DNA of 64,000 bases from a virus (taxonomy: Duplodnaviria; Caudoviricetes). How positions within the stretch are numbered: the first letter of the stretch is position 1; each line of letters begins with the position of its first letter. A program made the translations under genes and the position numbers. Under the pieces are notes generated by a model that did no database searches, was not told where the DNA came from, and worked only from the letters and a program-made list of their open reading frames with translations. The stretch lies in IMG/VR virus record IMGVR_UViG_3300011008_000002; one strand, written 5' to 3'. Positions 8,899 through 62,199 of the stretch are shown one piece after another.

Positions 8899-8964
8899 TG
8901 TATATTCCTCCTTTCTAGTATTATACCCTTGTTCAAAACACAAAAAATGATGGATTTTATAAAT

Positions 8965-9345
8965 TAAATATTCCTATACAAAAAAAGTAATGGGAGGTTC
9001 AACTGATGGCACAGTATTCCCTCCCGAGTTGTCAACTAATTAGCTGATATCGACAGCAGTAGGCGTATATTTGATTTGATCATAATAAGGTACGCCTACT
9101 GCCCATGTTGTCTGCCTAGAATCAGCTTTAACAAACAGCTGTTTCCCAATGGCTTCCAACTTGGGTGATAGGTGATGAACTGGTTTCCCGTATGTACTTA
9201 TACGGGAAGCCAAGTTCATCTCTAGTCCTCATATCGAGTTCCATATCTAATTACCTCCTTTCATAAAGTATAAATAGAAAGTATTATACTTTCTATTTAT
9301 CTAAGTATTTAATATAGTTACAAAAAGTCTATGAACCTGAATTTT
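8965..9345 (-). repeat. MELD element copy 1 (promoter, palindrome, frameshifted peptide gene, terminator)
   Basis: Homologous to 22715-23031; ATG 9244 with SD AAAGGAGG; conserved C-terminal peptide lies in the +1 frame ending at 9040. Confidence 0.8.
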
Positions 9346-9411
9346 TGTAATAGTAAAAAATAAATGGGCAAGTGGTATATTTCAACCCTTGTCCATTTAC
9401 TTATGTGAGAA

Positions 9412-15098: not shown

Positions 15099-15593
15099 TT
15101 AATACCTAGCACCGAACATACCAACATCCAACCCGATCGAGCCCTTACTCTCACGACGCTTTCCGCTGTTGCCCTTTCCATTGGTCAACTTCTTAACCAT
15201 ATCATTGTAGTAAACCACAATCTTTGAAAGTATATCTAATGCATCATATCCCTGGAAAATCGTCTGATAATCTTCATCAGATAAATTCGCTGCGAGCTTG
15301 GTCTGCTCCAACATGGAAGCAAACATATACATCGCAGACTCCAGCTCCTGCTTAGAATACGTCTCAGATTCGAAAATCGCCCTACAATTATCGCAGTATG
15401 CCGTTGTATCAGAATACTGATCTTTATTCCTTATCGGCACATTTTCATCCTTGATAGAACGAACGCGACCTGAACCGCCGTGAGGTTTGTGGTCACAACC
15501 CCTCTGAATTCTCTGCTGATTGTTGTACAGTTCCTGCTGGATCTCATTCTGTTTCCTCTTCAGATCCTGCTGCTGCTGATTCAAGTTTGCCAT
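15099..15593 (-). CDS. hypothetical protein, Q-rich N-terminus, possible Zn site (CDH...CDNC)
   Basis: 164-aa ORF, SD AAGGAGG, TATATTAAA at 15763-15772. Confidence 0.85.
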   Translation of the reverse strand: MANLNQQQQDLKRKQNEIQQELYNNQQRIQRGCDHKPHGGSGRVRSIKDENVPIRNKDQYSDTTAYCDNCRAIFESETYSKQELESAMYMFASMLEQTKLAANLSDEDYQTIFQGYDALDILSKIVVYYNDMVKKLTNGKGNSGKRRESKGSIGLDVGMFGARY

Positions 15594-15819
15594 AATTTAA
15601 TACCTCCTTTTGAAAGATTAATTTTAGGCGTTTCCGGAAATGCCTAAACCGAGACACGACAGGCTTATGGCTTGGACCAATCGAATCTGATTTACTTCTC
15701 TGTATAGCAGATATTATAAATCTATGATTTTTGGTCTCACCTATCAGTCCTCAGTTCACCCTTTTAATATAGTCATAAAAAAGTCATTGAACTTTTGTGG
15801 GTTCAATAAATTCTAAAAC

Positions 15820-17821: not shown

Positions 17822-18604
17822 TTACTTAATCCGAATGTTCTCCGTGATGTCTACCAGATAATCGTTGATATTCTTCACAGTGGGAGTTACCAACTCTCCA
17901 TCTACCCAGTATGTAATACCAACAAGCTTCTTGGCGACCTCAGTGATAACGTCATCCCTGTTCAGCTTGTTATACCTATCCTGCCCCGTCTTGACAATAG
18001 ATAACAAGAACGTACGGATGAAATTATGTGTCTGAAGTTCCGAACGGAACTCGTTACTGGAAAGCATTGATTTATAGGAATTCTTTGCATCAGCTTGGTC
18101 ATTGTCCAATAGAGCATCTACAATCTCCCTATCAAACTGGTTCACGAACATGATGGATTCTGTATTCGTTTCCAAGTCCGTGTAGTTAATCATAACCAGA
18201 CCGCGCTGTTCAGCCAAAAGTCCGAGATATTTCTGAAGATTTTCCGCATCAGATTCCGGTAATTTGAACAAATCCGTGATATCCTTACATCCGAGGATAA
18301 CAGAAACATCACCTTTGCTGCCGTCAGCGTTATCGGGCTCCCTGACGAACAAAACATAGTTGTTACTGTTTTTGATATCCTTATCATTCAACGCCAATAC
18401 TTCCTCTTCCCCGTCACCATATACAAGTTCAAGATGACTGATGGTTTCCAGTACAAGACCTTCCTTGGCGTAATCATATAGAGTCTTTCCATCTTCTAAA
18501 GTGATACCTGTAACTCTAGCACACCCGATTGTCTTATCACCAACTCTAAGACCTTCACCTGCCCTTGAGTCCAAGATATCAATTTCATTAACAGTAAATT
18601 TCAT
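17822..18604 (-). CDS. hypothetical protein
   Basis: 260 aa, SD AAGGAGG, hairpin 17778-17811 downstream. Confidence 0.8.
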   Translation of the reverse strand: MKFTVNEIDILDSRAGEGLRVGDKTIGCARVTGITLEDGKTLYDYAKEGLVLETISHLELVYGDGEEEVLALNDKDIKNSNNYVLFVREPDNADGSKGDVSVILGCKDITDLFKLPESDAENLQKYLGLLAEQRGLVMINYTDLETNTESIMFVNQFDREIVDALLDNDQADAKNSYKSMLSSNEFRSELQTHNFIRTFLLSIVKTGQDRYNKLNRDDVITEVAKKLVGITYWVDGELVTPTVKNINDYLVDITENIRIK

Positions 18605-18658
18605 TAGTTCTTACCTCCTTGAAAGATTTTATATAGTAGTTACAAAACCTATAAAAAA

Positions 18659-20596: not shown

Positions 20597-21001
20597 TCAC
20601 ACCTTTCCTATGAATTTTATTTCAGATGCATCGCTATATAAAACTTCAGCGATGAACTGATTACCCTTCTTTATAGTTAATTTCCCATTAACTAAGGTAG
20701 CCTTATCTGTAAAGTTCGGTCTCTCATTGGGATAATGCCCAATCGTAATATATCCCTGTTCCATTACAGTTGTAGGAAGAGAAACTTTACAATCAGAAGC
20801 ATTTGCCTGCAACGAATTAATACTGATAGGATATGGTTTCTTCCACAATCCCTTTGTAACATTCGGCATATATTTTGGGATATATGCCTTAATCTCCGTG
20901 GGAAATGGAATAATCGGTTCTACGTTTTCAAAATATTCGTAATTATCAACATTATATCCATTTACATTAGCAGTCTTTGCATTTTCACCAGTTGATGCCA
21001 T
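20597..21001 (-). CDS. hypothetical, probable virion protein
   Basis: 134 aa, CACA-N6-TA at 21030-21041, co-transcribed with the gp53-like gene. Confidence 0.7.
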   Translation of the reverse strand: MASTGENAKTANVNGYNVDNYEYFENVEPIIPFPTEIKAYIPKYMPNVTKGLWKKPYPISINSLQANASDCKVSLPTTVMEQGYITIGHYPNERPNFTDKATLVNGKLTIKKGNQFIAEVLYSDASEIKFIGKV

Positions 21002-21105
21002 ATAATAACTCCTTTCTTTTCAAATCATTTACTTCGATGTGAAAGTATTAATAAGATAGTAGAACTATAGGAGCGCATATACAAGAAACTAATGATATAG
21101 GAGGG

Positions 21106-22320
21106 ATGAATATGGCTTTTACATTAAATACGATGCAAGCAATTGCATCAGAGAAATTTAGACATTGGTACAAACATCCCGAAGATAGAGAACGACCTTG
21201 GTTTGAGATATCGGGACCAGCAGGTTCTGGAAAAACCACGGTCGTTAAACATATCATACAAGAATTGGGATTAAGTGACTCAGAAGTTGTATTTATGGCA
21301 TTCGTGGGGAAAGCAGCACTGGCTCTGCGATTGTCTGGGGTAAATGGCAGAACTATTCATAGTGTCATTTACCAAATCTCAAAGAAGTATAAGCGAGATG
21401 AAAACGATAAGATAGTATATTTACATGGTAAACCAGTACTTGAAACAAAGTTCGAAAAGCTAGAAGCATTACCTTTAGGTATTAAGTTACTGGTGGTTGA
21501 TGAGGGTGGTATGGTTGATTCTAATATAGGCAGCGATATACTATCATTTAGAATACCAACCCTTGTCCTTGGTGATTTACATCAATTACCACCTGTATTT
21601 GGAACAAGTCTATTCTTACAGAAACCTGATGTGATACTAAATGAGATAATGAGACAGCATAAAGATAGTGCTATTATATATTTATCTCAACTTGCAATGC
21701 ATGGGGTTCCTATTCCATATGGTAAATACAACAATGGTGAATGTAGAGTTATGAGGAGAGAGAATTTAACAGATGACATGCTCCGAGAATTTGACCTCAT
21801 CATATGTAATACTAACCGTACTAGAGACACAATAAACTGGTATATTAGAAAGAATATATATGGAATTGACTCAAATTCTATTGTCATAGGGGATAAATTG
21901 ATATGTCGTCAAAACTGTTGGGATATATTACTAGACGACCCATCAATAGATATTGATATTGCTTTGGTGAACGGTATGATAGGAAACGTAACAAGTATCA
22001 ACCGTAATACAAAAAATGGTTCCGGAAAACTTATGATAGATTTCAAACCAGAATTTTCAAATGTATGCTTTGAGGATGTACCTGTTAATCCATCATATAT
22101 ACTTAGCGAATATGAATATCGCAAAGCTACAAACCCAAGATTTTCACCAGATGTTACATTTGAACTTGGTTATTGTTCAACTTGTCATTTGGCTCAAGGT
22201 TCACAATATCCAAATATCCTAGTATACATTGATTCTGCATTAGGGGATTCTGATTATTCTAGGAAATGGTTATATACTGCTATTACAAGGGCACAAAAAT
22301 CTCTCACAATAGCGGCATAA
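21106..22320 (+). CDS. SF1 helicase, RecD/Dda-like
   Basis: GPAGSGKT, DEGGM, GDLHQLPPV, IMRQ, HLAQGSQY, YTAITRA. Confidence 0.92.
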   Translation: MNMAFTLNTMQAIASEKFRHWYKHPEDRERPWFEISGPAGSGKTTVVKHIIQELGLSDSEVVFMAFVGKAALALRLSGVNGRTIHSVIYQISKKYKRDENDKIVYLHGKPVLETKFEKLEALPLGIKLLVVDEGGMVDSNIGSDILSFRIPTLVLGDLHQLPPVFGTSLFLQKPDVILNEIMRQHKDSAIIYLSQLAMHGVPIPYGKYNNGECRVMRRENLTDDMLREFDLIICNTNRTRDTINWYIRKNIYGIDSNSIVIGDKLICRQNCWDILLDDPSIDIDIALVNGMIGNVTSINRNTKNGSGKLMIDFKPEFSNVCFEDVPVNPSYILSEYEYRKATNPRFSPDVTFELGYCSTCHLAQGSQYPNILVYIDSALGDSDYSRKWLYTAITRAQKSLTIAA

Positions 22321-22339
22321 AATGGAACAACAATTAAGT

Positions 22340-22440
22340 AATGATATTGGTTCCATTAGGGACGCCCCTTTTGAAAGATTTTCGGTAAAGTTCCGAAAAT
22401 GTCAGAGTGGTGTTCAAATACCACTCTGACATTTCTTCTT
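22340..22440 (+). ncRNA. candidate small RNA A (anti-RBS-like)
   Basis: AACA-N6-TA at 22329-22340, no SD-led ORF, ends in a long hairpin (AAATGTCAGAGTGGT/ACCACTCTGACATTT) plus T-rich tail. Confidence 0.45.
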
Positions 22441-22474
22441 GTATTACTTTTTATCATAAGTATAACAAAAAATA

Positions 22475-22680
22475 ATCTAGGAAGTCAGACCTATGGCTCA
22501 GTTTAACTCCCCAGTTCGACCGCATTCGGCTATGCTAACGCATTGAGCCAAACATTAACGCGAGCTCTCTCATAACGCTGAAAGAAGCTCATACGATCGT
22601 CGGCACTTGTTTCAGGTGCCGAAACCTACCTCGTAATCACTGGCTTTGAGACAGCTCTTGGGTGGTTACGAGGTGTTTGT
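22475..22680. ncRNA. candidate multi-stem structured RNA E
   Basis: GC-rich, non-coding; stems TGGCTCA/TGAGCCA, GAGCT/AGCTC, TCGGCACTTG/CAGGTGCCGA, ACCTCGTAATCAC/GTGGTTACGAGGT. Confidence 0.55.
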
Positions 22681-22714
22681 GCTGTAGTAGCCACTTATAT
22701 TATTTATAAAAGAT

Positions 22715-23031
22715 TCAATATTCCTATACAAAAAAGTAATGGTAGGTTCAACTGATAGTGGTCAGTATTCCCTCCCAAAACACATCGTCAGCTAATTAGC
22801 CGTAAATAACACGAGGTATGTACTTGATTTGCTGTGAGTATGGTACGCCCACAGCCCATGTGGAGTTTTTCAGGTCAGCCTTATCAAAGAACTGTTTCCT
22901 GAGAGACTTCAACTTGTCTGGTAACTGCTGAGCAGTTGGGATATTCTCCTAAACCTGCTCAGCAGTTCTCATATCGAGTTCCATATCTAATTATTTAATA
23001 TAGTTGCAAAAAGTCTATGAACCTGAAATTT
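22715..23031 (-). repeat. MELD element copy 2 (peptide ORF 22796-22984 with TAG in a hairpin loop)
   Basis: Homologous to 8965-9345; in-frame TAG at 22949-22951 inside a 13-bp inverted repeat. Confidence 0.8.
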
Positions 23032-23087
23032 ATTATATATGGTAAAAAGATTGATAGGATACGTTTAGTTTCCTATCAATCTTCTCT

Positions 23088-24719
23088 TTAATGCACTGGT
23101 TCCAAATCAAATATATCATCTGTAACCAAATCTTTATCCATCAAAGGATTTTTGTGAGACGACCGTCCTCTAGTGTTAAATAACATATCTGCACTAACCC
23201 CTTCCATATTCGTATCAAGACTAATGATACCCAATGGTTTCGATAATAATACATCGTTAATCATAGAGAATTCATTGTCTTTATGGAACGGTTGATTGAA
23301 ATAAGTTAATTTAGTGGATGGTCTATAACGTTCCTTCAATCTACTAAACGACAAATACAACTGACCAGTATCTTTCTTTCGTTCAAGATTTAGACCAATC
23401 GACATATCAGGGTTTTCCATAACTTCATATGCAGAACCTACATTTTCACCACCAATGAATCTAGCTAAATCAGCTTTTCCATCTCTTGCGGCTGCGTTCA
23501 ATGTAGCTAATGCATTTCTGTTATATTGGTGAGCTGATACTACCGATATTTGATAGTCAATCGCAATCTGTCGTATTTCATTCGTCACATTTTTGAGCAT
23601 CTCTTTTTCATCTCTTGCTCTTTGATGTGGAAGGATACGTTTTATGTAGTCGAAACTAACCATAATTACTTCTTTTCCTGACATAGCAAGCTCATCAATA
23701 ATATCACGAATATCCTCTGTAGTGATACTCATATTCGCACGATACATGAATATGATACCAATTTCATCATTACAAATGATTTTCTTCTCTTTGAGTTTCT
23801 TTACTATATCAGCAGGACTGTTCTTTTCGACATCCGTATTTTCCACTTCCATATTCCAAACACGAGCAAAAGACTCATCTATGGTATTCTCCATAGTAAG
23901 ATATAATACATAAGGTTTCATACCTTCATGTTTCGGTTTGAATGTTTTAGCATTAAACTTCGCACAATCGAGTACCACCTTTAATAACATAGCTGATTTG
24001 AAACCGCCAGTTACACCTAAGAACATATATAATTTTCCAGGTCGGAATCCTGGAGAAAGCATTTCATTTAACATTTGCACGCCGGTGATTATGATAGAAG
24101 ATTGATCTCCTAATCGTTCTGTTATTTCACCTACACGTTCTACAATGTTTGGATCGTTAAAATCAAGCATTCCACTATTCCAAATAGTAGAGATTTGTCT
24201 TTGGGCGGTCATATAATCACGTATCCAAAGTTTGACATCATCATTAATGTCTCTATATGATGAAAAATCCCCGCTCTCAACTGTTTCTATAACTTCCTTT
24301 ATACGAGGAATTTGGTTAATAAGCGACCCATATGTCAGCCTATCCTCAATAAAGTTTGTAACAAAGTCAATTTCTTTGTAGTTAAGGGCTTTATATCTGT
24401 CCAAATTCTTTAGAATTTCCTCAACTTGTTCACTCGGATTATCTGGTGTACAATAACTGAGGACAATTCCTTCGTCTTCGTATCTTTTATCGAGCTTTGC
24501 GTCGAGTGCTTTTAAGATAAATCGCACTCGTTCCATAATGACCATTCTGTTCTTGTAGTTCTCATAATCACATTGCAAAAGTAACTTTTGTACATTGCGT
24601 AAATTCAAGTTCGTAATATTCTTACTCTTCTTGAATATATACCCAATGATTTTATTTAACATCGTAACGTCCCACCGGATGTTACGAAGCGGTTCTTTAA
24701 CCATTTCTGTATCACCCAC
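23088..24719 (-). CDS. DnaB-like replicative helicase
   Basis: GVTGGFKS Walker A, YLTMEN, FDYI, SAHQYNR, KERY. Confidence 0.88.
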   Translation of the reverse strand: MGDTEMVKEPLRNIRWDVTMLNKIIGYIFKKSKNITNLNLRNVQKLLLQCDYENYKNRMVIMERVRFILKALDAKLDKRYEDEGIVLSYCTPDNPSEQVEEILKNLDRYKALNYKEIDFVTNFIEDRLTYGSLINQIPRIKEVIETVESGDFSSYRDINDDVKLWIRDYMTAQRQISTIWNSGMLDFNDPNIVERVGEITERLGDQSSIIITGVQMLNEMLSPGFRPGKLYMFLGVTGGFKSAMLLKVVLDCAKFNAKTFKPKHEGMKPYVLYLTMENTIDESFARVWNMEVENTDVEKNSPADIVKKLKEKKIICNDEIGIIFMYRANMSITTEDIRDIIDELAMSGKEVIMVSFDYIKRILPHQRARDEKEMLKNVTNEIRQIAIDYQISVVSAHQYNRNALATLNAAARDGKADLARFIGGENVGSAYEVMENPDMSIGLNLERKKDTGQLYLSFSRLKERYRPSTKLTYFNQPFHKDNEFSMINDVLLSKPLGIISLDTNMEGVSADMLFNTRGRSSHKNPLMDKDLVTDDIFDLEPVH

Positions 24720-28036: not shown

Positions 28037-28065
28037 TTTTCGTTTGTATGTAGTAACATTGATAT

Positions 28066-28746: not shown

Positions 28747-29838
28747 CATTGCCTCCTGATATCTCAGAAATCTCCACGTTTTCTTCAACAATTTCTCTTA
28801 TTCTATCGGAATTAGACCTGCGAAATTCCCTTAACGGTCCTTTCCAATAAGGCTGAATGAATATCTTCTTTCCCGTTTTATACGTTCTCCAATGACCGAC
28901 GACATACCAAGATCCGCATTTTCTAGTATAACTGCGATTCTCATTGTTGCCATATATCACTTCATCGAGTTTTGTTTCAATATCAGCCATAATTATCTTA
29001 TGTCTGACATATTTAACCCTCCTTGGTACTTCAGATTTGTATTTCTGATCTTGTGCAGTTAAGATTTCTCCTTTCTTTAAGTTTGACCGTTTCTCAATTA
29101 TTTCTTTCGTCACTGGATGCAACAACGCAAGTTGTATACTATACCATGTAGATAGTATCGCAATCGTTATAAGTTCGTGGCAAGATCTATCGTATAAGAA
29201 CACTTCGTTATCTATATCAAATCCTTTATTAGCGATTTTTTAAGCTCCATTAACATACTACTCGACATAGCTTTTGGTTGTCTTTCTGGTAAAATAACTG
29301 TATGCGATGGAGATATCCCAAACGCCTCGCTAAAGGCCAACGGAACCGCTATCATCACAGAGGACGACCTATCAACAAACTTCATATTCATTATCAATAG
29401 ACCAATCACCATTCCGATAAAATCGTTAGTGCTTTTTTCTTCCTTAGCATTTGATACAATCTCATGATAATCATCAAACAGCTTGACCCTGTATGACATA
29501 CCACCAACAGTACCATCACTGGCGGTATTTGTGAACTCGCAATCAGGAAGAGGTACACAACCACCGACCACCATATCTGATGGTATGCATTCTTTATCTT
29601 TGGTCTGTTCTATCCAGAACTTCTCAAGATAATCCACAGTTTCATTTGATGCTTCAACATACTCTGGAGCTTTTTCAGAAAAACATTGATTTGCGATATT
29701 TTTTACGTTGTTCGGGAGTTCATCCGAAAACACAATATCGCAATCACTAAAAGTTCTCATTTGGCTTCTAGTAATAAATTCTGGTCTCCAAACTCTATTG
29801 TTTGGATATTTCGAGAACTTCCTCATTTTGTTACTCAT
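28676..29838 (-). pseudogene. gene split by a -1 frameshift at an A6 run; C-terminal VGHWR...QPYWKG domain
   Basis: 29212..29838 has SD and TATATTAAA; 28676..29203 has no good SD; the frames join at CTT AAA AAA (~29236-29244). Confidence 0.55.
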
Positions 29839-37872: not shown

Positions 37873-39369
37873 TTAGATATTCAGATAAGCATACATTCCG
37901 GCAATACCATCTTTGAACGGTGCAGTGTCCATATCATAAAGACCATCATTATGTGATATAAACATATTGCTCCGTGGGTTATTGTTCTTGTAATACTCTT
38001 CACCAATCTTCCCAATCTTATGACAGAATATATTCTCGATATCACCATCGAAATCCGCATTCTGTTTGTTTAGTACATAAGTCGGAAGACCCATACAATA
38101 ATCCGTGATGTCACTCGATATCTTAGCAACGTACATCGTAATATACGAACCAAGATTGATAGACGGATTTCTGTCAATACTGACGTACAATTTATTATGT
38201 GTCATCAAATGCTGCATAAGTTTATAGATGCGCTCGCTATACACGACTGATGCTTCAGATAACATATCCCAAGCATAAGGATAATCCTTCTGATACAAGT
38301 CATGTATCATCGCAACGAGTTCCATTTTATACAGTTCCAAGAAGGTTGTATATCCAAGCCCTATCTGGTCTGCTCTTAACTCAGGGTCTGGTACGATAAC
38401 ATTTCGTCCAGTATAATTAAGACGACCACCGAGAATCTGTTCATTGATAATACCTTCTTTCCTTTTGATTGTCTGAAACGACATATCCCAAAGTTGATTG
38501 ACATAACTCTGGATACGATATAGGATGTTCTCTTTACGTAAATACGCTGTATCCTTCTTACGGTTTGTTCTATAATCAACTCGCCGTTTCCATTCAAAAT
38601 CATCATTCAACAACATATGATCGCTAAATAACTTCTGGAAGATTTTATCTTCATCGGAATATTTAATATCTCCATTCCGAACCATCCATTTCCTTAGCAT
38701 CATATTATAACACGGGATAGAATGTATGAAGATTTCTTCCTCGTGTATCCTAAAGAATTCATACCCATCAACTTTCCTACTTCTCTTATTGTAGAATTCA
38801 AGTATCTCTCTAAACCTCTCCCTGAATTCAATCATTCCAATCCCATAGAACGGAGAGGTCTTATTATCCATATACTTCTCACGTTCTTTCTCAGGAACGT
38901 AATGTAGCATCTGATGCAAATGGGCATTGCCGAAATACCAACCAAGCTTCAAGAACATTGCAGGATTGATTATTTCGTTCCTATCAAGAATAAACCAGCC
39001 TGTCTTCATAATTTTCGTATCAATGAACCTCACTGGTTTTCCACACTTCGGACAAACCGTTTCAGAGTCCATATATCTACGTCCTATCAGGTTTCCACAC
39101 TTGCACGAAAACCTATCTTCGAATGCATTTTCATCCTTCCAATCTGTACCATACAATGGAGAATGAATTGAATAAAGTCCAGGTTCCAAATCTAAGTCAG
39201 TTTTACCTCTTTCTGTAATTCGGAACCCTACTCCTGTAGTTATCTCATCCTTGCATCTGGAGTCCCAATCTGATATAATAATCCTAAATCTTGGATTACA
39301 GATTGTTGCCCCATCTGATGTATACTTGTGTGGATGATCAATTCTTTCACCTGACAAATATAAAGGCAT
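37873..39369 (-). CDS. RNA polymerase beta' subunit, N-terminal part with catalytic NADFDGD
   Basis: Zn finger CKCG...CPKC, GGRLNYTGRNVI, RNPSI, NADFDGD; start at 39369 (SD AAAGGAG) or 39393. Confidence 0.92.
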   Translation of the reverse strand: MPLYLSGERIDHPHKYTSDGATICNPRFRIIISDWDSRCKDEITTGVGFRITERGKTDLDLEPGLYSIHSPLYGTDWKDENAFEDRFSCKCGNLIGRRYMDSETVCPKCGKPVRFIDTKIMKTGWFILDRNEIINPAMFLKLGWYFGNAHLHQMLHYVPEKEREKYMDNKTSPFYGIGMIEFRERFREILEFYNKRSRKVDGYEFFRIHEEEIFIHSIPCYNMMLRKWMVRNGDIKYSDEDKIFQKLFSDHMLLNDDFEWKRRVDYRTNRKKDTAYLRKENILYRIQSYVNQLWDMSFQTIKRKEGIINEQILGGRLNYTGRNVIVPDPELRADQIGLGYTTFLELYKMELVAMIHDLYQKDYPYAWDMLSEASVVYSERIYKLMQHLMTHNKLYVSIDRNPSINLGSYITMYVAKISSDITDYCMGLPTYVLNKQNADFDGDIENIFCHKIGKIGEEYYKNNNPRSNMFISHNDGLYDMDTAPFKDGIAGMYAYLNI

Positions 39370-39625
39370 ATCTATTACTCCTTTCTTTTCCATGTAAGCT
39401 TTATTAAGAATGTCTAAAGCTTCTTACGTTTTAATATATAAACATAAAAAATATAATAAAATGAATTGGTATTAACAAAGGAGTGCGGAGTGGTGTGGGA
39501 ATAGCCTAGCTCCATTATAGTTTGATCTTTTCATTTATATTGGTGGATTATTTCTATTCATCTAGGTATCTAATATATAAATGAAAGTCGGTTCATATAT
39601 TTTTTTACAATACGAACAATTAGTT

Positions 39626-39730: not shown

Positions 39731-39828
39731 TATATAAGAAAAATCCATTTCGCAGCTATTTTATTACTATATTAATTCTGTAGATATAAAGAAACTATCA
39801 ACAACTTTAATACCAAAGGAGGTTCATT

Positions 39829-40128: not shown

Positions 40129-41385
40129 TTATGTGAACAAGTCCTCTGATTTCAGAGTAAAAGTTCTGACTGTACTATCGTGCGACTTCTTCATCTTTGC
40201 ACGAAGCATCGAATTAGAAACACGCCCGAATGTTAATCCGGGATATTTGATACCTAGTAGATAGTATCTATCCCCTGCACATCGGTTGCATAATTTTTTA
40301 CCAATGCAATAATCAGGAAGACGCATTTCTACAGTCTTATTGAGATATTCTGACTGATTATCCGGTTCTAATCGGACGTATTTGTTTGGTCCTACTTTGA
40401 TGAATTGATACATATAATAGTGCATGATACCCTTGGTAAGGGTAACAGTTGCACATAACCCAGTACCGCAATCTGTACCTTTATCATCAAGAACCACATC
40501 CTGAAATCCGGCAGCCAGCTTCTTTGTTGTATATCCACTTTCTCCAGTACCAATCGCTTTCGGATAGAAACCAGATACAACGGCATTAGCCAGAGAGGGG
40601 ATATTTTCTTTCGGGATACCCTCATAGAGAGATTGTGTAACAATCTCGAATTCTCCTTTATGGGCATTCCAGATTGGTCCTTTTGTACACAACCATTGCC
40701 TATAAGCATTGTCGAATGAACCTCTTGCACCCGATGAATAAAGCTCATACGCAGGATCATCCTTTAGTTCTTCTTCAGCAACCCGAACTAACTCGTCTTG
40801 TATATGTTTGTACGTGATTGCGTCATTGTTTTCAATTGCATCCTTATTTTCCGCAATCAATTGTTTCTTACGAGCCATTACTTTAGGAAGAGGTTTCGCT
40901 GTTCTAATTGATAGAGATGAACATATCTGAGTATTAACGGTGAATGCCAACCAACAAAGTCTGTTCATATATTCTATGTATTTCTTTGTAGTGGTATCCG
41001 TTTCATCCAACATAATTGCTGTAGCAATCATCTCATCAATTTTTTTGAGACCTTTCTTGGTAATCTCGAAGTTCACGTATCCTACTTCCTTTTGGAAATA
41101 CGGCTCTATCAAGAATTTATTGAAAATTAATAACCCACAGTTAGTGGTTATCTTTTCAGAATTGAAGTAATCACCCTTTTCCAAAACTATTTCATCAAAA
41201 GTATTGAACTTTGATGGAATAATCTTTGGTTCCTGAACTCCGGTTTTAGGGTCTTTCTTCATATTGTTCGGGTCTACTTTGTCTGTAAAAAGACTATCAA
41301 ACAATGTCTGCGTAATATCATCAGGTTTAAGGCTCAAAAACATTGCTTTTTCTTCAGCAGTTATGGTACGCTTTTTTCTCGTCAT
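40129..41385 (-). CDS. RNA polymerase beta' subunit, C-terminal part
   Basis: SGARGS, bridge-helix-like TGESGYTTKKL, DCGT, second Zn site C....LCNRCAG. Confidence 0.88.
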   Translation of the reverse strand: MTRKKRTITAEEKAMFLSLKPDDITQTLFDSLFTDKVDPNNMKKDPKTGVQEPKIIPSKFNTFDEIVLEKGDYFNSEKITTNCGLLIFNKFLIEPYFQKEVGYVNFEITKKGLKKIDEMIATAIMLDETDTTTKKYIEYMNRLCWLAFTVNTQICSSLSIRTAKPLPKVMARKKQLIAENKDAIENNDAITYKHIQDELVRVAEEELKDDPAYELYSSGARGSFDNAYRQWLCTKGPIWNAHKGEFEIVTQSLYEGIPKENIPSLANAVVSGFYPKAIGTGESGYTTKKLAAGFQDVVLDDKGTDCGTGLCATVTLTKGIMHYYMYQFIKVGPNKYVRLEPDNQSEYLNKTVEMRLPDYCIGKKLCNRCAGDRYYLLGIKYPGLTFGRVSNSMLRAKMKKSHDSTVRTFTLKSEDLFT

Positions 41386-61360: not shown

Positions 61361-62083
61361 TCAATAACTCCTGCCGCCACCGTTGTTATTCCCGTGCCTG
61401 CCATTCACCAAATTATTCCAATCAGTTGCAATACGGCTGTAGTCTGCGCCACTCTTACCGGATTGAGTCTTGTTCGCCGCAACCTTTGCAACCATAACAT
61501 TGAAATTATTTGTATTCGCAATCGGCGTGACGTGAATAATGGTAAAGTTAAACTGATCATCAGGAGTAACACCCATGACCATCATCATCACTTTCTGCCA
61601 ATCTAATTCCAATGATGCTAAACCACGGTTATGCTGCTCGCTCTTAATGTTCATAATCGGCTTGCCGTTATCACTCAACTTGCACAAAGGTTTGAACGTA
61701 TCATCGAACTCCTTTGATCTTCCGTAAAGTCCGGTCGAATTGTAACTGCCTCCGGCAACTGAAATCATGTTTATCCTGCCGTTTGGTCCCTGGTTATTTC
61801 CCTTCCCACGATAGTAAACGTTCTTACCATTCTGGGTCATGAAATATACCTTTACTGCAAGGTCACTCAAACCTGCTCCACTCCTCGACAATGCCGGCAT
61901 GAACATGACATTGTCAACTTCTGTGATGTGAAGATTATCACGGAAACGCTCCACTAATGCCTTGCCCATCTCATCGGTTGTAGTAGCATAAATCTTACCG
62001 ATAAGCGTCATAGGAATCAATGGATTTAATCCCTGAGCTCCACTTACTTTAGTTGCTCCATCTGTTGTTGCTGTACTTGACAT
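61361..62083 (-). CDS. hypothetical protein with G/N-rich C-terminus
   Basis: 240 aa, SD AAAGGAGG, TATATTAAA 62151-62160, terminator 61305-61344. Confidence 0.85.
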   Translation of the reverse strand: MSSTATTDGATKVSGAQGLNPLIPMTLIGKIYATTTDEMGKALVERFRDNLHITEVDNVMFMPALSRSGAGLSDLAVKVYFMTQNGKNVYYRGKGNNQGPNGRINMISVAGGSYNSTGLYGRSKEFDDTFKPLCKLSDNGKPIMNIKSEQHNRGLASLELDWQKVMMMVMGVTPDDQFNFTIIHVTPIANTNNFNVMVAKVAANKTQSGKSGADYSRIATDWNNLVNGRHGNNNGGGRSY

Positions 62084-62199
62084 TATAATGTCCTCCTTTT
62101 TGAAAGATTTATTAGAAATGAGGTTTAACCGGTATCCTCAAATCTGTCATTTTAATATATAAACAAAATGGACATTGACCATTTAGTTTATCAATTGAT

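Follow-up and report, generated by a model that had tools for sequence, protein, structure and literature searches.

Genomic setting of the unit

Two convergent genes, which encode a Dda/RecD-like helicase and a divergent DnaB-like helicase, are separated by a 767-bp gap that harbors a compact unit made of a late promoter motif, a predicted non-coding RNA (ncRNA) and a strong hairpin (Table 1). The gap lies within a 64-kb window, the whole stretch of DNA that we analyzed, which is the reverse complement of positions 132958–196957 of a single 229,126-bp virus contig. The phage, described as a gut jumbo phage of 229 kb, has metagenomes as its only source and is, according to protein matches, a distant relative of the jumbo phages AR9, PBS1 and Staphylococcus S6; its DnaB-like helicase is ~27% identical to the AR9/PBS1/S6 counterparts. 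DNA similarity searches with 21000–23100 against the phage collection, in near and in distant mode, returned no match, and a metagenome scan with the helicase profile found no relative.

Table 1. Features of the unit, its surroundings and its candidate target sites (window coordinates)
Feature	Position	Strand	Description
Helicase's own late-type promoter	starts 21080	+	TACA-AGAAAC-TAA; from the promoter list
Dda/RecD-like helicase	21106–22320	+	phrog_325 at 4e-79; Pfam AAA_30, UvrD_C_2
Late promoter motif of the unit	22329–22341	+	AACA-ATTAAG-TAA; AR9-type (non-virion RNAP); predicted start, A at 22340
Predicted ncRNA, ~100 nt	22340–22442	+	single-stranded 5′ end, weak 4-bp hairpin, seed, hairpin 2, terminator, U-rich tail
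Seed	22365–22382	+	CCCCUUUUGAAAGAUUUU; degenerate anti-SD (CCCC) plus specific extension
Hairpin 2	22378–22400	+	UUUUCGG / CCGAAAA; sequesters the seed 3′ end; from the fold
Terminator	22397–22442	+	perfect 13–17 bp hairpin, then UUUCUUCUUGU; from terminator scan and fold
Divergent DnaB-like helicase	23088–24719	−	other border of the 767-bp gap
Split RNAP beta-like subunits	37873–39393 and 40129–41385		phrog_2987 and phrog_2962; multisubunit RNAP encoded in the window
T1 site	15606–15619	−	14-nt exact complement, runs into the SD of the 164-aa gene 15099–15593
T2 site	18619–18630	−	260-aa gene 17822–18604; exact complement of 12 nt, just 5′ of its SD
T3 site	62098–62110	−	240-aa gene 61361–62083; exact complement of 13 nt, 5′ of its SD
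721-aa gene	G000:C1:124377–126542 (window-equivalent 70416–72581)	+	outside the window, in a late operon; phrog_18873 only

The promoter motif of the unit lies 9 nt past the helicase stop codon and faces no downstream gene, and a helicase transcript reading through would include the unit as its 3′ untranslated region (UTR). The plus strand reads CCATTAGGGACGCCCCTTTTGAAAGATTTT at 22354–22383, and the predicted RNA folds with an energy of −37.2 kcal/mol (z −5.8). Its 3′ end has the features of an intrinsic terminator, namely a GC-containing stem of 17 pairs (22397–22434) and a T-rich tail (CTTCTTGTAT), at which the phage RNA polymerase may stop. In our phage the seed has a mixed unpaired probability, its CCC and 3′-terminal bases being base-paired in the best fold of the RNA, and it is mostly unpaired in the relatives G002, L010, L041 and L042. 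No Rfam family was found at gathering score in the window or at the loci of seven relatives; at E-values up to 10, searches over 22250–23150 yielded noise only, with RsaE and C4 not among the matches. Neither a tRNA nor a tmRNA was detected.

Other elements surround the unit without being part of it. A GC-rich, ORF-less stretch of ~230 nt (22464–22700), which terminates in a minus-strand T-tract, has no Rfam match and no homologue in the relatives G001 or G002, and lies between the unit and a small repeated gene ('MELD...') present at 22700–23010 and 8950–9360, both on the minus strand. An early promoter (TTCAGGTTCATAG...ACTATATTAAAT) and a terminator belong to this mini-gene. Of its copies, the one adjoining the unit is broken by an in-frame TAG at codon 12, the sister copy is frameshifted and more partial copies are found outside the window. 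On the other side of the Dda/RecD-like helicase gene, the divergent promoter region shared with the T2 operon contains a block, GTGAAMGT...TAA.TAGTAGAA (21020–21075), that is conserved in four phages. We rejected the TAGTAGAA block 5′ of the helicase as a promoter class, as the motif does not recur elsewhere in the genome.

The unit carries a phage-class late promoter motif

AR9 late promoters follow the consensus AACA-N6-TA/G, in which the last base is the start site (PMC5312081), and the motif of the unit has the same grammar. Late-type [ACT]ACA-N6-TAA sequences behave like promoters in our phage: 77 of the 108 genome copies are intergenic, though intergenic DNA makes up 10% of the genome, and 62 of these 77 face a gene (62:15), with the start codon mostly 29–48 nt downstream. 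NACA-N6-TAA shows the same promoter-like behavior in G001 and G002. Along with this late-type motif, an early-type one, (T-rich)ACTATATTAA(A), predominates in intergenic DNA of the phage; it precedes, among others, an RNAP beta-like gene and is similar to the AR9 early promoter AAATATATATTAT-N6-G. By its motif, by the class to which this motif belongs and by the RNAP encoded in the window, the unit qualifies as an AR9-type late transcription unit, which would be read by the non-virion RNA polymerase (nvRNAP) and give a late transcript.

Fifteen intergenic NACA-N6-TAA motifs face no gene and may be promoters of further non-coding RNAs. Such gene-less sites lie at 28055, 37673, 37808 and 54198 on the plus strand and, outside the window, at the window-equivalent positions 93974, 94012 and 112885; some, of the form TACAAAAAAGTAAT, are no more than terminator T-tracts in reverse complement. 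Late promoters without a downstream gene, or with antisense transcripts as their product, are also on record in the AR9 study, which assigned no AR9 late RNA a trans-acting anti-Shine–Dalgarno (anti-SD) role, unlike what we propose for the unit (PMC5312081). A second promoter-bearing repeat family, ATCCRTTT...TATTTTATTRCTATATTAA...GTAGATATAAAGAAACTATCAAC, occurs at 39768 (+) in the window and, outside it, at the window-equivalent positions 77920, 167309 and 189033.

The unit is conserved as a plus-strand element in related phages

We compared homologous spacers from nine other phages, using the helicase, which in these phages is 58–81% identical to that of our phage, as an anchor. The unit is present in seven of the nine (G001, G002, L010, L038, L039, L041 and L042; helicase 63–81% identical) and absent from L040 and L043, where a terminator alone occupies that position. 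In all seven unit-bearing relatives the parts follow the same order, from the helicase stop codon through NACA-N6-TAA, a stem-loop and an anti-SD stretch to a strong hairpin, and the rest of the spacer sequence has diverged. The NACA-N6-TAA motif directly follows the helicase stop codon in all eight unit-bearing phages, at a distance of 7–20 nt in the relatives where this was measured.

The 5′ stem-loop starts at +1 to +3 of the predicted transcript in the seven relatives and displays compensatory changes in three of its eight pairs. In G001 it comprises two G-U pairs, for which the opposite strand would have A-C mismatches. The plus strand has the better fold in seven of the eight phages and is not inferior to the minus strand in the remaining one. 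The relatives carry CCUCC, CUUCC or CUUCUCC at the seed position, followed by A/U-rich bases. Our own phage lacks the relatives' 5′ stem-loop, has a degenerate anti-SD sequence (CCCC instead of CCUCC) and possesses the shortest unit, with ~100 nt as compared with 139–221 nt in the relatives.

A conserved open reading frame (ORF) was sought on both strands in the eight phages and none was found. Minus-strand ORFs with a preceding Shine–Dalgarno (SD) sequence occur in only two of the eight phages and are mutually unrelated; the minus-strand ORFs of three phages encode 28, 2 and 22 residues, L010 has no ATG after its minus-strand SD and L041 has no minus-strand ORF whatever. The geometry of SD, spacer and ATG is kept on the minus strand in three of the eight. 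The locus thus holds a discrete non-coding unit with a promoter, a terminator and no conserved ORF, as is typical of trans-acting small RNAs (sRNAs), and very probably represents a conserved plus-strand non-coding RNA gene with a late promoter.

The seed is complementary to three ribosome-binding regions

Positions 22365–22382 of the plus strand are exactly complementary to bases located just 5′ of, or running into, the SD sequences of three minus-strand genes, hereafter T1, T2 and T3. The original prediction placed the complement of the unit directly 5′ of these three SD sequences, and it is borne out by exact runs of 14, 12 and 13 nt, respectively (Table 1). The window has five copies of the 10-mer AATCTTTCAA where 0.76 would be expected, a count not attained in any of 100 shuffles. 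Across the 229-kb genome, AATCTTTCAA(A)nGG is found four times, all on the minus strand of the window, at the three gene starts and at the unit. When we examined 759 intergenic windows of 103 nt that are not antisense to called gene starts, six (0.8%) matched at least three ribosome-binding site (RBS) regions by at least 12 nt; two of these six correspond to the unit and three are antisense to gene starts that the crude gene caller missed. Windows in 28997–29150, candidates for other multi-RBS matchers, were discarded as antisense to uncalled minus-strand gene starts.

Part of this match is generic. AAAAGG is the extended SD of the phage, AAAGGAG precedes 89 of the 214 genes and the AAAGGAGG context contributes to every match. 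As the AAAGGAGG/AAAAGG portion is generic, the specific information amounts to only ~9–10 nt (AATCTTTCA). Moreover, 22% of the windows antisense to a real gene start likewise match at least three sites. Given this generic share and this rate, the observation made in a single genome says no more than that the unit, read on its minus strand, looks like the start of a gene.

The T1 and T3 leaders also contain a hairpin located 10–25 nt upstream of the motif (15630–15660 and 62115–62140), which is found in L004, L005, L006 and L044 as well. Its loop always holds CCGG (UUCCGGAA, ACCGGUU) and its stems vary between phages by compensatory substitutions.

The seed co-varies with the T2 site

Within the genome of our phage, a 34-nt seed places T1, T2 and T3 at ranks 6, 10 and 12 of 214 genes by duplex energy, and at ranks 10, 36 and 8 when the opening of structure is charged (cofold). 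The three genes are therefore not outliers in this energy ranking, since several unrelated RBS regions score better, and many RBS regions pair with the seed at −18 to −28 kcal/mol. The best predicted partner is the 721-aa late gene, whose site AAAATCTTTTGAAAGGAGGGCGT reaches −28.2 kcal/mol and differs from the seed complement at two positions, both G-U compatible.

Comparison between genomes gave a sharper picture. Among 138 ortholog triplets from three complete genomes, T3 ranks first (p 2.5e-4), T1 second (7.6e-4) and T2 sixth, and in G001 and G002, from which the finding did not originate, the three genes are within the top 0.4–14%. T2 could be traced through eight phages, and its cognate seed/site duplexes have a mean energy of −19.2 kcal/mol versus −15.0 kcal/mol for non-cognate ones (permutation p 0.0006–0.0009), and five syntenic control genes gave no signal in the same cognate test (p 0.09–0.56). 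An 18-bp duplex joins the L041 seed to the T2 site of that phage and takes in AGACUC, which lies 3′ of the SD and thus beyond the generic SD sequence.

Individual positions change in concert. The unit and T1–T3 of our phage share ATCTTTCAA, the counterpart of which in G001 is ATCTTTT(A/T)A at the four loci, so that the bracketed base of ATCTTT[C]AA, a C shared by the unit and T1–T3, is T in all four in G001. Of five transition differences between aligned seeds and targets, four run, by our own reading, in the direction that G-U pairing tolerates. The T3 site of the L039 genome has only GGAGGAC in common with the L039 seed, and we rejected T3 as a clade-wide target. Co-variation of seed and target is thus found for T2, and T1 and T3 top the three-genome ranking, with T3 failing in L039; targets other than T2 seem to change from phage to phage.

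Since independent drift of unrelated sequences gives no cognate advantage, we conclude that the seed and the T2 site co-evolve. RNA–RNA pairing would explain this most simply; a protein that reads both sites and rapidly changes its specificity is conceivable too. On the basis of this co-variation, the RNA of the unit probably acts by pairing with RBS regions, with T2 as the conserved partner.

Promoters of the candidate targets and timing of expression

The original prediction gave all three genes, T2 in a variant form, the promoter type that we class as early, and two of them have it. TATATTAA(A) precedes T1 (15764–15771) and T3 (62152–62159), and the early promoter of T3 is conserved in G001, G002 and L044, hence in four genomes including our phage. 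The T1 leader combines its early promoter with a late-type promoter (15692–15704), both kept in G000, G001 and G002; in AR9, the presence of an early and a late promoter together is the mark of continuously expressed genes (PMC5312081). T2 is the last gene of an operon for which the only recognizable promoter is late-type, CACA-TCGAAG-TAA (21029–21041). Its 'variant' early promoter (CTATATAAAA) was rejected, as it is not conserved in the relatives; an RNA initiated there would begin within or past the target site.

Early- and late-promoter genes show no difference in predicted pairing in three genomes (p 0.57, 0.21 and 0.29), and we rejected global targeting of early genes on these grounds. 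The proposal that early targets are silenced late is thus not supported, given the late-type promoter of the T2 operon, the two promoter types of T1, a best partner that is a late gene and this lack of an early/late difference. Silencing of early genes late in infection is the least supported part of the original prediction and we regard it as doubtful. Because the promoters of T1, T2 and the 721-aa gene and the pairing show no early-only bias, the RNA looks more like a means to set the dose of a few specific proteins in the nvRNAP phase than like a general early-gene shut-off, and we favor the former.

The sequences of T1, T2, T3 and the 721-aa gene provided nothing usable in Pfam and PHROGs, and nothing in the ESM Atlas. 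The structure of T2 was predicted with a pLDDT of 88 from an alignment of 15 homologues; this model has no match in Foldseek at E-values up to 0.001, and its best VIA-align hit (Z 4.6) covers the C-terminal helix pair only, leaving no convincing structural relative. Six tRNA genes lie directly downstream of the T2 orthologue in L042 (1095–1642, minus strand).

Alternative explanations for the unit

The relatives' anti-SD core is a perfect complement of the consensus AAGGAGG, which, along with the many RBS regions that pair favorably with the seed and the instability of the target set between phages, would suit an RNA that masks SD sequences in general or mimics the tail of the 16S rRNA. Such an RNA would pair through its anti-SD core (CCUCC, CUUCUCC) with the majority of phage and host mRNAs that have a strong SD, and would broadly dampen or re-balance translation late in infection, the T1–T3 matches being secondary. 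We consider this unlikely, as our phage has kept the specific flank despite its degenerate core, the cognate advantage is seen for T2 and for none of the five control genes, the L041/T2 duplex runs past the SD and predicted pairing is without early/late or global bias. The position of the unit between the helicase stop codon and the first strong hairpin, and hence within helicase transcripts, would also fit a cis-acting helicase 3′ UTR, in which the tail and terminator serve stability, termination or self-pairing and any other complementarity is incidental. There is precedent in the Staphylococcus aureus icaR mRNA, the 3′ UTR of which carries, between stop codon and terminator, an anti-SD motif that pairs with its own SD (PMC3868564). 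In contrast to icaR, the unit has a separate promoter of the phage class, conserved after the stop codon in the eight unit-bearing phages and followed at +1 to +3 by a stem-loop in seven of them, and pairing of the seed with the helicase RBS is weak (cognate −10.7 versus non-cognate −11.0, p 0.65). We thus rejected icaR-like self-pairing for want of a cognate advantage, and a purely cis-acting role appears improbable.

The original prediction had itself raised the possibility of a relic minus-strand gene start, which could be a fossil or a live decoy with a T1–T3-like leader motif, SD and ATG, kept by a common trans factor or as an RNA-stabilizing SD-like site. Indeed, the minus strand reads AAAATCTTTCAAAAGGGGCGTCCCTAATGG, that is, the motif, a weak SD, an 8-nt spacer and ATG; an ATG follows the SD in G001 and G002 too, the geometry kept in three of the eight phages fits an origin as an inverted gene start and the 22% of antisense RNAs that match at least three RBS regions point the same way. 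This reading fails as a full explanation and we judge it quite improbable: there is no conserved ORF, L041 having none at all, the conserved promoter and 5′ stem-loop lie on the plus strand, and the G-U pairs and fold energies favor that strand. In addition, minus-strand transcription has to get past two obstacles in turn, a terminator with TATTTTTTGT as its U-tract and the strong hairpin, and G002 offers no room for a promoter between the two. Chance resemblance in AT-rich intergenic DNA would be compatible with a specific match of only 9–10 nt and with unremarkable energy ranks in the genome of our phage, but it is hardly credible since no shuffle reached the observed count, 0.8% of the control windows match as many sites and the unit is conserved and co-varies in seven relatives, so that the comparative data already contradict it. 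An independent plus-strand ncRNA is the best reading because of the 5′ stem-loop, its G-U pairs, the folds, the absence of an ORF and the terminator barrier on the minus strand.

Proposed mechanism

We propose that the unit is a small plus-strand ncRNA gene whose product pairs in trans with a few phage RBSs, a reading to which we assign a probability of about 0.6. In silico support comes from the class of the promoter, from a unit and a seed that are conserved, from the lack of a reading frame and from co-variation of the seed with T2. The trans antisense RNA originally predicted stands in so far as a discrete, ORF-less plus-strand unit with a late promoter is conserved in seven relatives and co-varies with T2; production of the RNA, pairing in vivo and repression as the outcome are what we infer from these sequence features.

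In the proposed model, the nvRNAP would initiate at ~22340 from the AR9-type late promoter and stop at the strong hairpin to yield an RNA of ~100 nt, the sequence of which would also form the 3′ UTR of helicase transcripts that read through. The RNA would expose a pyrimidine-rich anti-SD stretch with a phage-specific extension, which may pair in trans with the RBS regions of a few phage mRNAs. T2 would be the best-conserved partner, with T1, T3 and the 721-aa late gene as further candidates in our phage. Such pairing would partly occlude the SD and deny access to the 30S subunit, and the resulting duplex could also be a substrate for RNase III.

Relation to known antisense RNAs

The c4 antisense RNA of P1 is processed from the same transcript as its target, whereas the candidate targets of the unit lie 4–48 kb away, three of the four on the other strand. 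The unit would resemble c4 of P1/P7 in that a phage small RNA uses an exposed stretch to pair with the RBS of another phage gene and block its translation (PMC12197685); c4 belongs to a temperate-phage immunity system, whereas the unit resides in a lytic jumbo phage and has no Rfam C4 match. The RoxS/RsaE-type sRNAs of Bacillota are likewise short, ORF-less RNAs with their own promoter and terminator and, as proposed for the unit, an exposed C/U-rich stretch complementary to SD regions (PMC5419742), and the setting is similar as the host of our phage apparently uses strong AAAGGAGG sites. The unit differs from RoxS/RsaE by the lack of an Rfam match, by being encoded in a lytic jumbo phage and by its late promoter for a phage RNAP; RoxS/RsaE have several C-rich regions, whereas the unit has one seed and its predicted targets are the phage's own genes. 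By analogy, the unit would mechanistically resemble both RoxS/RsaE and c4; with no Rfam match, it is a member of neither family.

Implications for jumbo phage gene expression

So far, an early and a late promoter class have served to explain gene timing in jumbo phages with their own RNAPs. Temperate phages and prophages are the main subject of a review on sRNAs derived from phages, which for the jumbo relative phiR1-37 lists only RNAs of unknown function (PMC12197685). A late-promoter RNA with a seed that co-evolves with a phage RBS would add a post-transcriptional layer to this timing. The RNA and the T2 leader would form a concrete, testable pair, and T2 would be marked as a dosage-sensitive player.

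At the level of the clade, we see an even chance that AR9-like gut jumbo phages run a riboregulatory circuit of their own, in which an nvRNAP-made sRNA, with a seed co-evolving with the T2 RBS and with shifting other targets, would set translation in the replicative/late phase. If true, lytic jumbo phages would thereby gain their first described example of a trans-acting sRNA that co-evolves with its target.
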